Source of the DNA: Mobula hypostoma
Lineage: Eukaryota
Assembly (NCBI RefSeq): GCF_963921235.1
Contig: NC_086097.1
Span: 124,312,001 to 124,376,000, forward strand
DNA: 64,000 nucleotides
Reading direction: 5' to 3'
Of this stretch, positions 57,601-62,480 are shown piece after piece. The position numbers and the translations under genes are program-made. Under the pieces are notes generated by a model that saw only the letters and a list, made by a program, of their open reading frames with translations, did not search any database and had not been told where the DNA came from. How positions within the stretch are numbered: the first letter of the stretch is position 1; each line of letters starts with the position of its first letter.

Positions 57601-59425
57601 AAAACTCTGATCCCGGAACATGCTGACATTCGCTGAACTGTGGGGGCAGGGGCCACCAGCCCACATCCTCACCTGTCTGCCAGCCCAACATCTGACCATA
57701 GATGTCCTACGTCATATGTTCACATTGCTGGTCTTCGAGCATGCAGCAGTGGCCTAGACTCCAGCTTGACCTCTAATTCCTCCACAGACCTGTCCCTAAA
57801 CCCTATCCTGACCCCTAAAGTTGTTTAATATTTCAATAATTTTGCATTAATTGCATACGCCATCACGCTGCCATATGATACATGTGTGTCTCTCTTAAAG
57901 TAAAGATGAAGTTACATCCACATTCTCGGACTCCCATATTTTCCATTGAATTAGTTTAATGTTTTGAAGTTACAAAACATAACATTGACGACGAGTTATT
58001 TTTAAAACAAACTTGAGACAGCTACTGGCTTGTTAGAGCACAGCGAGACGTTTGAACTAAAAAGAAAACTTAATGAGGAACAGCAAAGCAGAGTAGCACG
58101 TGTTCTTTGGAAGGGAAGACATGATCGAGTAAATGGAAAAATTCACAGGTTCTGGGTGATAACAATCATTTAAAGAAATTGGAAATGGCTGGCTACACTG
58201 TAAAGATTGATGAGTTTGATTACACAATGGATAATTGGCTCATGCACATTGAGCTATTGGAACAGTACTTTGAAACAGATGAAATAGTCAATGAGAAACG
58301 AGTGCCAATGTTGCTAAGTGTGTTGGGTTTAAAGGTATGCAGTTTGCTTCAAAGTTTAACTGCTCCAACCAAACCGGCTAAAATGAGCTTTCCTGTATTA
58401 TCAAAGTGATATAGGAATGTTTAGAACTGAAACCATTGTTGATTTCAGAATGCTTTAGGTTTCATAAACAGAATCAAAAAGAGTGGGAGTCCATTTCAGC
58501 TTACGTGGCTGAATTGTAGAGATGGTCTGAGAGTTGTCAGTTCAGTAATGAGCTGAATGACGCAATGAGATATTGTTTAGTTTGTGGAATCTTACGAGAA
58601 AGCATGCAAAAATGCCTACTATATGAAGTACAACTTACATTCAAAAGAGCAGTGGAAAATGCTCTGTAACTAGAAACCACAGAGAGATGAAAGTAACAGG
58701 AATAAAATTGCAGTGTCTAGACAGAAACTGCCCTGGCCAGATAAATTGTATTGCTGTTGTGGAAGGGGCTCACATACATCAAACAAATGCAGGTTTAAAG
58801 GAGAAACTTGCAGCAAATGCAACAAATTAGGACATGTAGAAAGAGCATGTTGGGCAGACAATAATAAATGGTCTGCACAGGGAAGAGAAAATGCTAATAA
58901 GTCAAGTTGCAGTTTCATAAAGTGCACTAATCTGCATGCTTTTGATTTTTAAAAAATCTGATAATGATGAGAGTGATGCAGGACTGAGTACACTTGAGAT
59001 TTACAACGTGAAAGCTAACAATAGGCAAGCAAAATGACTTTTACCAGAAGTGAACAGCAAACTAATTAAAATAGAATTAGACACATTCAGCTGTTTCAGT
59101 CATTCCATAAAATGAGTCTGAACAACATTTCAAAGATATTGAACTGAAGCCTGCAGAAATCCAATTAAGAATTTATACTGGAAAAAGGATAGCTCCTGTG
59201 TGAATGACATTCGTTGGGCTTGTATGTAGCAAAAACAAGAAGGCTAGCATTGTGGGGGTGTGATTGGCTGAGACAACTACAACTTGATTGGAGACCCATT
59301 GATCATGTGCATGCCACATCCCCTGCAATGAAGCCAACAGAAAGTGAATTCAGAAAGGTACTGGATGATGCCACAACTGTCTCCATGCCGAACACCATGA
59401 ACCATTGCCCAACAGAAGACAACAG

Positions 59426-59986
59426 GTGTTGGTGCAATCCTCTGTGCCTCTGGTTGGAAAGCTTATTAGGCCAAGGAAGAACCATGCTGCTCAGAGGATT
59501 GGTGAAAGTGGTGAAAGCTATGGTCTGACTACAACACTTTTTGTAGGTAACATATCTGAGAAAGCTTCTGATATGTTAATCATACAGTTATTTACAAAAT
59601 ATGTCCTGGTTTTAAGCTGGAAGAGAGCTCAACAAGCTTTGGGAAAGTTGCAAGTATTTGGCTTTTGTGAGTATAAAGAACCAGAATCTACTCTGCATGC
59701 CTATGGTTATTGTATGAACTTCAAGTGGGAGACAAAAAGCTGCTTGTAAAGTAGATGCAAAGACCAAAGCCCAGCTGGATGAATGGAAGGCCAAAAAGAA
59801 AGCAGTCAATGGAGATACGAAAACAGAGGATTCATCAGGTGTTGTTGTGGATAAGGAAATGAAGAGTAGAGATCAGATTGTAAGGGGGGCATAGAGGGAT
59901 TAATAAGAGAATACTCCAGTGAATTAAATGCACATTCTCAAGATCGAGATGCACAAACTAGAAGAAAAAGGAAGACGAAGAAAGAT
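59426..59986 (+). pseudogene. RBM25: Intronless, frameshifted fragment of RNA-binding motif protein 25 (RRM region) inside a Gypsy element
   Basis: Conceptual translation across ~3 frameshifts: VLVQSSVPLVGK..TTTLFVGNISEKASDMLIIQL..LVLSWKR..GKLQVFGFCEYKEPESTL..ELQVGDKKLLVKVDAKTKAQLDEWKAKKKA..RDQIVRGAIEGLIREYSSELNA; matches the RBM25 N-terminal region as I know it. Confidence 0.93.
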
Positions 59987-60191
59987 CAGAACCACTTCTT
60001 GCATTCTCAGAGTCAACTCCTACATCCACCACGGAGGAGTCCCGTGCTGAAACCGCTTTCACCACCACAAGACTCACCTGCCAAGCAGAGTGATCCTCCT
60101 TGTCAGGAAAGATGTAATCCCTGAAGGGTAAGAAATCCTCCACAGTGATTAAATCTTTAAGCCTGAATGGGACAATTTAACAATTTAATAT

Positions 60192-61787
60192 TGTGATGTT
60201 GGTGGATATGGGGTCAACATCACTATCATCCGTCCTGGTGTTCTCCCCAACATGGACCAGCCATCCCTGCCTGGGTGGACAACGACGGTGTCCAACTAGC
60301 TCCGGTCACCGGTGACTGTGTGGCTATGTGAGGGAAGAGGAGGCTACGCGAGGGAAGAGGAGGCTACGCATCGCAGTGGAGCACGAGGTGTGGCTTGCTG
60401 ACATCCAAGAGTCCTGCATCCTTGGCCTGGGCCTGCTGTCCCGCTGGGCGGCCCGTGTGGATGTTTTGGGGGAACACTCTGCCTCGGTGCCGAAGCCCTG
60501 GCTCTCCTCCGGCAGGGCAGCTGCAGGAAGCGGTCCCAGCGGGAGCTGCAACCACTGCGGTTTTACAGCGGCCCGCAGCGGTGCAGTATACCCGGCAGTG
60601 GCCCAACGCAACACCGCTGAATCATGGGCAAGTGATACTGATGGCACTTCAGATGACAGCCAGCGACGACCTCCCCACTATCGACCACGAGCAACTGCGC
60701 AGTGAACAGGTGAGCGATTCAGTGCTGGCCCAGCTGAGTGTGGGACGTGGCCAGAGTGGACAGAGGTCTCCGCCCTGGACCCGGAGACCAAGGCTCTATA
60801 CTCGCAGTGGGGAACGCTGGGGGTACACGACAGGTTGCTGTTCAGGTGGTGGCAGTTGTCCGATGGTGACAGACTCCTGCAGCTGGTAGTCCCCAGGGGC
60901 TCCACGCCACGGTGCTGCGGTCAGTGCACGGGCTGGTGGGGGCCAGATATCTCAGAGTGGCAAAGACATTGGGCAGGCTGCGTGAATGCTTCTACCGGCC
61001 TGGGTACAGGCAGGTCATGAAGCTGTTTGTGCACGGCTGCATTGCCTGCAAGTCCCAGAAGGAGCTGGGCTGCCAGTCTAGGATGCCAAGGCAACAGTAT
61101 ATGGTGGGGGCCCCAGAATGGGTCTACAGCCCTTCCCAGAAGAAGGGACTATCCACCAGGCTTGTAGCCACTGGAAGGGGCTGGGAGAGGAGCTCGACCG
61201 CATCTCCGATGTGGTATATCGGGTGCGGTTGCCTGAGCAGCAGAAGGCAGTCGTGCTGCACTGGGGCCGGTTGGCACCGTGTCAGCCCTTGGCCACCACT
61301 AACCCGGCGAGGCTGAAGGAAGGAAGTGACACTCCAGGTGCCCTGCCTCTTGCATCTCACAAACAGGCGGCAGTGTCAACGTCCACCGGAACTTTTGGAT
61401 CTTGCTATGGACTCTGGGGTTGCCGAGGACGGCTGACCCCTCCAGTGGAGGCAGTGTGACGCTCTGGGTGGGGCGTGGTCAACAGCCCGCCCCTGCGTTT
61501 CTAATGACCAGTACTGTTTATTGTTCTTGTGTTAAAATGCTTTAGTGGGATTATGGTGGGAAGTTCCAGTTCGTTTATTGTTACACTTTAGCTTGGGTTA
61601 TACAGTCATTTGCTTGTGTATTTGTGAGTCACCCTGAATGTAACCGGGGTGTGTGATTGTCACCACCCCCGTCGGTATGAGACGGGTTGGGTTCACTCTC
61701 CGGGTCACAGTGTCCGGTCTGTTTCGTGTCTATCACAATAAAACGGTTGTTGAGTTAAAGAGCTTCCTCGTTTGTCATTATGGGCCA
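60192..61787 (+). mobile_element. Nested, deleted GC-rich Gypsy element (protease + integrase pieces + 3' LTR ~61455-61787)
   Basis: LVDMGS protease-like start, ADIQESCILGL, integrase zinc-finger region (SVHGLVGA..KTLGRLRECFY.PG..CIAC), W.G..RISDVVYRV C-terminus; LTR starts TGTGAC at 61455 with AATAAA at 61737. Confidence 0.8.
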
Positions 61788-62204
61788 AATGCTGAGGATG
61801 TCTGTACAGAGTAGTTGTATTATAACTTATACTGTGTGTGTAGTTGAGATGCATTCTATACTGAGTTGGAGTTTATAGCTGATTAGGGAGGAGTGTTGTG
61901 TATTTAATATTTCAATAATATTTGACTAATCTCATGCATACACATATTGGTTGATTAAGCATTCTCATTCATTTAAATAATTCATTACAGGTTATATGCA
62001 AAAATATGTTAATTGCTCACATCATCACATGACCATGTGATTCATATGGGCCTCACTTAAAGATAAAACTACATTTGCATTCCCAGACTCCCTATCTTCC
62101 TTTGAATTAGTTTAATGTTTTGAAGTTACGAAACATAGCACCTAACTTCTCCGTCTTTCTCCGAATCCATTCCTATGGACCTAAAGAACCAACTATGTCT
62201 GAAC

Positions 62205-62480
62205 TAAGAGGGTACCCATTTAAAACAGAGATGAGGAGAAATTTTTTTAGCCAGAGGGTTGTGGATTTATGGAATTCGTTGCCACGTACAGCTGTGGAGG
62301 CCCGATCATTGAGGCTGCTTAAGGAGGAGATTAACAGGTATCTAATTAGTCGAGGTATCAAGGGATATGGGGAAAAAGCCAGAAATTGGAACTAGTTGGG
62401 AGAATAGTTTAACTTATGGTGGAGTGGCGGAGCAGACTCGATGGGCCAAATGGCCTACTTCTGCTCCTTTTTCTTGTGAA
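62205..62480 (+). mobile_element. CR1 3' end
   Basis: PFKTEMRRNFFSQRVVDLWNSLP and 'tgggccaaatggcctacttctgctcc' tail. Confidence 0.85.

Follow-up and report, generated by a model that had tools for sequence, protein, structure and literature searches.

Intronless RBM25 cDNA in place of most of pol in an old, amplified Ty3/Gypsy-type retrotransposon family, very probably acquired by template switching

Background

In LTR-mediated retroposition, as described by Tan et al. 2016 (Genome Res, PMC5131818), part of the internal ORFs of an LTR element gives way to a retrocopy and both LTRs stay in place; microsimilarity was found at 25 of 29 junctions, with a median of 6 bp, and some of the products act as non-autonomous LTR elements. 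The available part of the same paper also names maize Bs1 and rice LTR elements that captured pieces of genes, oncogene transduction by acutely transforming retroviruses (Goodrich and Duesberg 1990; Swain and Coffin 1992, both as cited there), and the MaLR elements, which are mobilised in trans by MERVL.

The RBM25-carrying element described here resembles the chimeras of Tan et al. 2016, as the available part of that paper presents them (PMC5131818), in that an intronless partial copy of a host mRNA has taken the place of some of the internal ORF sequence between the two LTRs, microsimilarity lies at both fusion points (7 and 9 nt here against a median of 6 bp there), neither a poly(A) tract nor a duplication surrounds the retrocopy, and the locus can act as a non-autonomous element. 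It differs in number, the retrocopies in that source being mostly single and some of them multiple and dispersed, against at least 1330 junction-bearing copies here; and it differs in age and setting, the RBM25 family being old (LTR pairs 74-81% identical) and residing in a 3.5-Gb vertebrate genome. As in the acutely transforming retroviruses, so far as the same source treats them, spliced host cDNA replaces viral genes, the product is defective and helper-dependent, and short homology is found at the recombination junctions; unlike them, the RBM25 family has no 5′ read-through or splice junction, gives no sign of an advantage conferred by the cassette, and spread in the germ line as a repeat family. 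In outline, the likeness to MaLR and ETn lies in LTRs and cis signals common with an autonomous partner, a missing pol and a high copy number, and that to maize Bs1 and the rice LTR elements in an internal region that holds spliced host gene fragments.

ETn is mobilised by MusD, and to our knowledge no host cDNA can be recognised in the internal regions of MaLR and ETn. Bs1 brings three genes together at low copy number, unlike the RBM25 family with its single donor gene and thousands of copies. No publication linking RBM25 with a retrotransposon was found in the literature outside subscription journals and repeat-library entries. The element has the features of an LTR-mediated retrocopy (an intronless copy of a multi-exon gene, ORF replacement between LTRs, and microsimilarity beyond chance) and those of Ty3/Gypsy (a TG..CA LTR pair with a target duplication, a CCHC gag with PR, and PR followed by RT in the parent loci). 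Neither the mechanism nor the kind of element is new; the family is notable for how far it was amplified and for how complete its record is.

Structure of the element

An LTR element in + orientation was found to span positions 57819-62140 of the window, the whole stretch of 64,000 nt that was analysed; all features below are on its + strand. Direct reading of the sequence located the target-site duplication CCTAA at 57814-57818 on the 5′ side of the element and again at 62141-62145 on its 3′ side. The 5′ LTR (57819-57984, about 166 nt, ending ..AACA) was delimited by direct repeats D1/D2, LTR alignment and self-BLAST. Its middle is diverged and shortened relative to the 3′ LTR, and it starts with AGTTG, the first base being mutated (AG.. 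instead of the expected TG..). The 3′ LTR (61894-62140, 247 nt, TGTTG...AGCA), placed by direct repeats, LTR alignment and comparison with other copies, is 76.8% identical to it over 138 nt by self-BLAST. Directly 3′ of the 5′ LTR lies the stretch TTGACGACGAGTT (57985-57997), assigned also from the contexts of five other copies; it reads TTGACGACGAG in the window versus (T)TGGTGA.. or TTGGTGA.. in other copies, and it is labelled PBS-like only, because no tRNA matched. The polypurine tract TTAGGGAGGAG is located at 61883-61893, and the same tract precedes the 3′ LTR in four other copies, so that a purine tract was seen there in 5/5 copies inspected. Thus, among the features listed in an earlier note on this DNA, the LTRs, the PPT and the CCTAA duplication were recovered, and the PBS was reduced to a PBS-like stretch.

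Decayed gag and aspartic protease (PR) were identified at 58185-59368 from the ORF list, with a frame broken by stops and frameshifts, and the copy is dead, as had been proposed. The gag region opens with an ATG at 58185 and has a CCHC knuckle (C..C..GH..C in the window ORF) around 58730-58850. Its N-terminus, MAGYTVKIDEFD.., resembles P0125, a Ty3/Gypsy polyprotein of a loach, as does PR; the Pfam order of P0125 is RVP, RVT_1, RT_RNaseH, Integrase_H2C2 and rve. The PR of another copy, L019, gave a Pfam RVP match of 20.2 bits and shares 51-53% identity with P0125 and similar polyproteins. RT, RNase H and IN cores are absent from the window copy. The pol tail and the start of the 3′ untranslated part occupy 59986-60186, with a 76% match to parent locus L053; the tail comprises the last ~60 codons of the parent pol, the integrase C-terminus (..PPCQER..RVRNPPQ*LNL), and resembles the C-terminus of P0125, ..EEKRYPTRIRKPPNRLDL.

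At ~60187-61785, with approximate ends, a nested, unrelated, GC-rich Gypsy-type fragment was found, which is absent from other copies and from the earlier note. It has a protease-like start, an Integrase_H2C2 domain (E 4.3e-8, Pfam), an integrase C-terminal piece and an LTR-like end, lies in the same orientation as the element, and is itself an internally deleted element, because RT and the integrase core are missing. This fragment lies outside the RBM25-carrying family: in other copies the tail runs directly into window position 61791 onward, and contig pieces with loose ends at 60180 were found on 81-104 contigs per run. The 3′ untranslated internal region proper (61791-61893) is contiguous with the tail in at least 20 other loci. 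Adjoining the 3′ end of the element, an open frame, ..RGYPFKTEMRRNFFSQRVVDLWNSLPRTAVEA.., was observed at window 62150-62450, which we take to resemble the C-terminal tail of LINE RTs common in cartilaginous fishes and reptiles.

The RBM25 cassette and its donor gene

Window positions 59369-59985 were found to be intronless RBM25 cDNA inside the Ty3/Gypsy-type LTR element, consisting of the last 10 nt of exon 2, the 48-nt exon e2b, RRM exons A-C, most of exon D and a remnant of exons F and G. The translation gave a Pfam RRM_1 match (E 2.5e-5) on 59369-59749, and fish RBM25 proteins matched with an E value of 3.5e-27 and 67-68% identity. The host RBM25 gene is located on the minus strand of contig C1 at about 99.79-99.84 Mb, on the same contig as the element and ~24.5 Mb from it; it was located by its PWI end, which the element does not carry, and 80 kb of the host region was compared. 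Five host exons match the cassette at 82-91% DNA identity by blastn, with the introns of 1.7-5 kb gone, and lineage-specific residues such as ..KDHAAQR.. are common to the cassette and the genome's own RBM25. The RRM_1, fish RBM25 and host-exon matches bear out the intronless RBM25 RRM cassette that had been recognised in a Gypsy element from the letters. The bounds first given to it, 59426-59986, held as to RBM25 content and failed at the start, which lies 50-57 nt further left, at 59369-59376.

The host-specific last 3 nt of exon 2 (ACT) and exon e2b were placed at 59376-59425 by blastn to host locus L036 (9633-9584, 88%). Exon e2b has 47 nt in the window copy and 48 in the host, because of a 1-nt deletion. 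In the host it reads VSMLYTMNRCPTEGKQ, an in-frame exon of 48 nt located between exon 2 and the first RRM exon (L036 9633-9586, G000:C1, minus strand); it is bounded there by a good acceptor (..ttttcag) and donor (gtaacc). In the element it is in frame with PR upstream and exon A downstream. The 'RBM25-like isoform X1' model P0140 of the shark Heptranchias perlo begins within e2b residues, and e2b is therefore a real exon. What the element carries is a copy of an old mRNA isoform in which e2b was present.

Exons A, B and C, which encode the linker, the whole RRM and the following helix, were located at 59426-59814 (blastn 88%, 82% and 91%; RRM_1 match); they are separated in the host by introns of 1.7 and 2.8 kb, which are absent from the cassette. 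Exon D without its last ~30 nt follows at 59815-59955 (blastn 85% to L035 6430-6258, and alignment of copies), and then a purine-rich remnant of the exon F start and the exon G start at 59956-59985, recognised from junction forms and other copies. Beyond the RRM plus helix recognised earlier, the cassette reaches into later exons and ends at 59985 in the F/G remnant, not in exon D alone. The exon F start (20 nt, 100%) was seen in L029 and L011, and exon E was not found in the cassette, with matches in 0/30 loci. The window copy joins exons precisely at 2/2b, 2b/A, A/B, B/C and C/D, and the F/G joint was seen in L028 and L030 of the longer subfamily described below; these five joints and the F/G joint support the earlier proposal of acquisition at the RNA level. 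Neither a poly(A) tail nor a duplication flanks the cassette, which ends in exon G, as the earlier note had also stated. The PWI exons are present only at the host locus, the cassette holding the RRM region only, and the cassette is not a functional RBM25 paralogue, as RRM, ER-rich region and PWI were not found together in an open frame.

Parent element and junctions

Parent loci were selected by a pattern that required the PR side and penalised the RBM25 side. All six loci fetched have a PR 69-78% identical in DNA to that of the window and continue into RT as ..AVFKD.IGKLK... The 27-mer predicted for the PR-RT boundary of the parent gave 1600 matches with up to 2 mismatches, at least 100 of them exact, and 0 in the control; two of these matches, at C5:54328752 and C9:90199903, adjoin RT matches. 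The parent runs from PR into RT exactly where the chimera turns into RBM25, and the chimera rejoins it in the last ~60 codons of pol, which agrees with the claim that pol had been replaced. The 3′ region of the parent is contiguous in one decayed copy (L053) only, the remainder coming from the listing of an 18-nt anchored pattern. Four autonomous elements from an RT search (L042-L045) were also considered as the parent and rejected, with no DNA match and a PR only 32-37% identical. In that search, all 150 scored places of 28022 first-look candidates matched the RT query, at 62-76% identity. As some of these places have open frames of up to 858 aa (L042), one or more related Gypsy lineages may be far younger than the RBM25-carrying family.

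The 5′ crossover is located at 59369-59375, in a 7-nt microhomology (TGCCACA) that occurs both at the parent PR-RT boundary and where RBM25 exon 2 ends. The host sequence is ..ACTCC TGCCACA ACT, followed beyond the end of exon 2 by GTCTCC..; the family reads ..GGATGA TGCCACA ACTGTCTCC.. and the parent ..GGATGA TGCCACA GCAGTGTT... Because TGCCACA is common to host and parent, the 5′ switch was placed within these 7 bases. The same 5′ junction was found in 31/31 aligned junctions, L029 contributing two. At the 3′ junction, the parent class reads ..TTGTTA GAGAAGAAA GGTGTCC.., the chimera class ..GAAAAG GAGAAGAAA GGTGTCC.. and host exon G ..GAAAAG GAGAAGAAA AGGGAT.., giving 9 bases in common. A pattern anchored at the start of the tail gave 1914 matches versus 1 in the control, with two classes upstream, the parent ending in ..TTGTTAGAGAAGAAAGG versus the chimera in GAAAAGGAGAAGAAAGG. 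In 200000 random junctions between the same sequences, the chance of at least 7 shared nt was 7.4e-4, and that of at least 9 nt was 2.5e-5.

Splicing was considered at both ends. A 5′ junction made at the e2b acceptor was ruled out, since each copy has the last 10 nt of constitutive exon 2 upstream of e2b; a 3′ junction at the exon D donor was ruled out by the longer subfamily, in which exon F sequence and the beginning of exon G precede the tail. Both crossovers lie inside exons, and therefore splicing did not make them. The microhomology at both junctions supports two putative template switches by reverse transcriptase, of which it would be the signature, in line with the template switching put forward in the earlier note.

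Copy number, insertions and age of the family

A search with 871 nt spanning both junctions yielded 6056 first-look candidates; of the places scored, 40/40 matched, one of them being the window itself. Both junction regions are present in all 39 scored places beyond the window, at 78-84% identity, and the order gag/PR, RBM25, tail was found in 29/29 fetched loci. A 25-mer of the 5′ junction (up to 3 mismatches) gave 1330 matches on many contigs and 0 in the reversed control. The flanks vary from copy to copy where both ends are visible. Perfect target duplications were found in the window copy (CCTAA/CCTAA) and in L022 (GTCAG/GTCAG), and in L024 the duplication AGTTA/GGTTA matches at 4/5 positions; those of L016 and L023 match at 3/5, which fits decay, but about 10% of random pairs do likewise. 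The insertions are independent. Evidently, the chimera moved as a unit and was amplified to more than 1000 copies, about as many as the parent. The junction matches, together with the differing flanks and target duplications, confirm the suggestion that the cassette moved with the element as an amplified family; uniqueness of the junctions to this locus, which the earlier note had set against its own reading, did not hold, the same two junctions being found genome-wide.

LTR pairs are 74-81% identical among copies. The mean identity of the cassette is 84.5% between copies and 88.1% between copies and the host cDNA, which indicates that the family is an old, roughly star-like burst. At an assumed rate of ~1e-9 substitutions per site per year, its age would be in the region of 1e8 years. 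The sample of 30 copies was not drawn at random from the family: it consists of those that best match the window copy.

Subfamilies

Two forms of the 3′ part of the cassette were distinguished. In the longer subfamily (L027-L030; 14/39 places), the exon F start is followed by the ER-rich body, then by the exon F end joined to the exon G start, and then by the tail; the ER-rich body in L027-L030 is about 100 nt long (81% over 102 nt, E 1e-22), and the frame hits stops after exon D. The shorter subfamily, to which the window copy belongs, lacks ~130 nt of the purine-rich part. The window copy lacks a further ~15 nt of the family 3′ junction, and the 9-nt microhomology GAGAAGAAA is therefore partly deleted in it.

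The absence of exon E and of the last part of exon D, together with the internal gaps of exon F, means that at least one further jump or deletion must be assumed: the losses may stem from a further jump, or from later deletions in the purine-rich repeats. The motif CTAGAA, common to exon D and the exon F start, is a candidate site of such a jump or deletion. L029 (G000:C96:22421545-22425223) was observed to have a partial tandem duplication, in which cassette 1-460 is followed by the last ~110 nt of PR and by the cassette again. L028 and L029, located on one contig, are a recent segmental duplicate pair, as they are 98.8% identical in the cassette.

Selection and decay

Selection was tested pairwise or by counting, without a consensus, on 585 aligned nt of the cassette in 30 copies; L029 was left out of the singleton and shared-variant counts as a near-duplicate of L028. 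Diversity among copies at codon positions 1, 2 and 3 was.153,.154 and.156, the numbers of singleton variants were 159, 144 and 161, and those of non-CpG variants in at least 3 of 29 copies were 36, 38 and 38. The variation is equal at the three codon positions, and therefore the cassette drifted neutrally, including in lineages that yielded further copies. No sign of selection on the cassette within the family was found by codon-position counts or by dN/dS, the comparison with host RBM25 that had been suggested earlier. All 30 sampled copies are broken: stops were found in the cassette of 25/30 copies and gaps in the other 5, and no stop-free stretch exceeds 284 aa in any sampled copy (29 loci).

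Twenty near-fixed differences from the host (in at least 80% of copies) are split 1/1/18 by codon position, and the host-to-root branch has a dN of.012 and a dS of.173. This split is expected if the host was under purifying selection after capture and the burst came soon after. The host-to-root dS of 0.173 is ~1.5 times the copies' own silent-site branch of 0.115, although codon positions 1 and 2 account for just 2 of the 20 near-fixed differences. Candidate causes of the dS excess are sampling bias, a higher silent rate in an expressed gene, or early constraint on the cassette, and the cassette may have been under a short constraint in the first master copies.

The reading frame runs on across the 5′ fusion (..KVLDD ATT VSM..), and this, together with the 2/20 near-fixed differences at codon positions 1 and 2, is the reason for considering a fusion protein. 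No evidence of function was found in the analyses reported here. That the first masters made a Gag-PR-RBM25(RRM) fusion, and that the module, or small RNAs against a thousand cDNA copies then almost identical to RBM25 mRNA, mattered biologically, seems very improbable to us. If true, the fusion or the small RNAs might have helped the hybrid to outcompete its parent, or might have pressed host RBM25 to diverge at silent sites.

Occurrence in other organisms

The same junction was found in a stingray protein model and in contigs from three organisms (A, B and C). The model, P0185 of Hypanus sabinus (383 aa, GTF2IRD2-like), has 80 N-terminal residues 68% identical to a family copy (E 2e-30) and spans the chimera junction as ..PTESELRKIQDD ATT VSMP.., that is, the PR end, the junction and the RRM start. 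The remainder of P0185 is a transposase-derived protein. The junction in this model is probably an annotation artefact or an exonised repeat. Among the 92 hits examined in a public protein collection, no chimeric proteins were found other than this one junction model, the rest being ordinary RBM25 fragments; the short proteins among the fish RBM25 matches are ordinary RBM25.

Contig pieces at least 90% identical on window 58900-60500 numbered 8787 (A), 11454 (B) and 11344 (C), and these are not chimera copy numbers, because 58900-60500 also covers parent PR sequence. None of the contig pieces listed bridges the 5′ junction with 31 nt on each side. Among the sequencing runs searched, no RNA run was listed as a holder, and none held half of the query words. 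One 163-nt piece from run X15, whose RNA nature is a guess, is an exact match to 59931-60093 and crosses the 3′ junction; it shows that the window locus is present in organism A, not that it is transcribed.

Origin of the chimera

We consider it very probable that the window holds an old, dead copy of a non-autonomous Ty3/Gypsy-type family, born once by two template switches onto spliced RBM25 mRNA. Spliced RBM25 mRNA would have been co-packaged with element RNA in a virus-like particle of the parent. Minus-strand synthesis would have left the element RNA in the last part of pol for exon G of the RBM25 mRNA, at the shared GAGAAGAAA; the enzyme would have copied the RBM25 mRNA back to the end of exon 2 and returned to the element RNA at the PR-RT boundary, via the shared TGCCACA. 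RT, RNase H and nearly all of integrase (~2.5 kb) would thereby have been replaced by RBM25 cDNA. LTRs, the PBS-like stretch, gag, PR and PPT were kept, so that parent proteins could have mobilised the hybrid in trans. As a passenger the cassette decayed neutrally, and later deletions would have shortened its purine-rich 3′ part.

Junctions of this form might also be produced at the DNA level, by recombination or repair (microhomology-mediated end joining) of an integrated element with RBM25 cDNA or a processed pseudogene. Alternative end joining likewise uses 7-9 nt of microhomology, and such repair would leave identical junctions, indistinguishable by sequence alone from switching during reverse transcription. 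It would require, however, that one element be broken twice and that a free fragment of spliced cDNA be present in matching orientation, whereas the pattern observed is the recurrent one of LTR-mediated retroposition, with microsimilarity at 25/29 Drosophila junctions in the available part of PMC5131818; we therefore regard end joining as very improbable.

Retrovirus-style transduction, in which an insertion in or upstream of RBM25 would give a read-through transcript spliced to the exons, with a single switch restoring the 3′ end, is an accepted route of oncogene capture (Swain and Coffin 1992, as cited in the available part of PMC5131818), and it would fit a cassette starting at the e2b acceptor, where the start appeared to lie before it was placed in exon 2. 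The cassette, however, begins within exon 2, 10 nt from its end and inside the 7-nt microhomology, which places the 5′ junction away from a splice site. Neither intron sequence nor flanking genomic DNA was carried along, and window 59300-59378, which formed the PR side of the blastn query, matches nothing in the 80-kb host region. On these grounds transduction is a very doubtful source of the chimera. A processed RBM25 pseudogene made by a LINE, landing in a Gypsy element with later amplification of the composite, is extremely unlikely: retropseudogenes are common in vertebrates and the cassette is intronless, but no poly(A) tract or duplication surrounds it, the 3′ end of the mRNA is absent with PWI exons only in the host gene, ~2.5 kb of pol was replaced and not interrupted, and both ends of the cassette lie in microhomology with the element.

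Conclusions

With donor, autonomous parent and product in one genome, and the crossovers resolved to the base, the two putative template switches leave an unusually complete record of this process in a vertebrate LTR retrotransposon. The copies seed false 'RBM25-like' exons in gene predictions, the stingray model beginning with the chimera junction being one case, and in related fishes the family can serve as a marker for phylogeny and dating. Over 1000 cDNA copies in neutral decay lie beside the selected original, which provides a built-in measure of the mutation spectrum and rate in this lineage. A hybrid that carries a piece of a host gene can thus reach about the same copy number as its parent.
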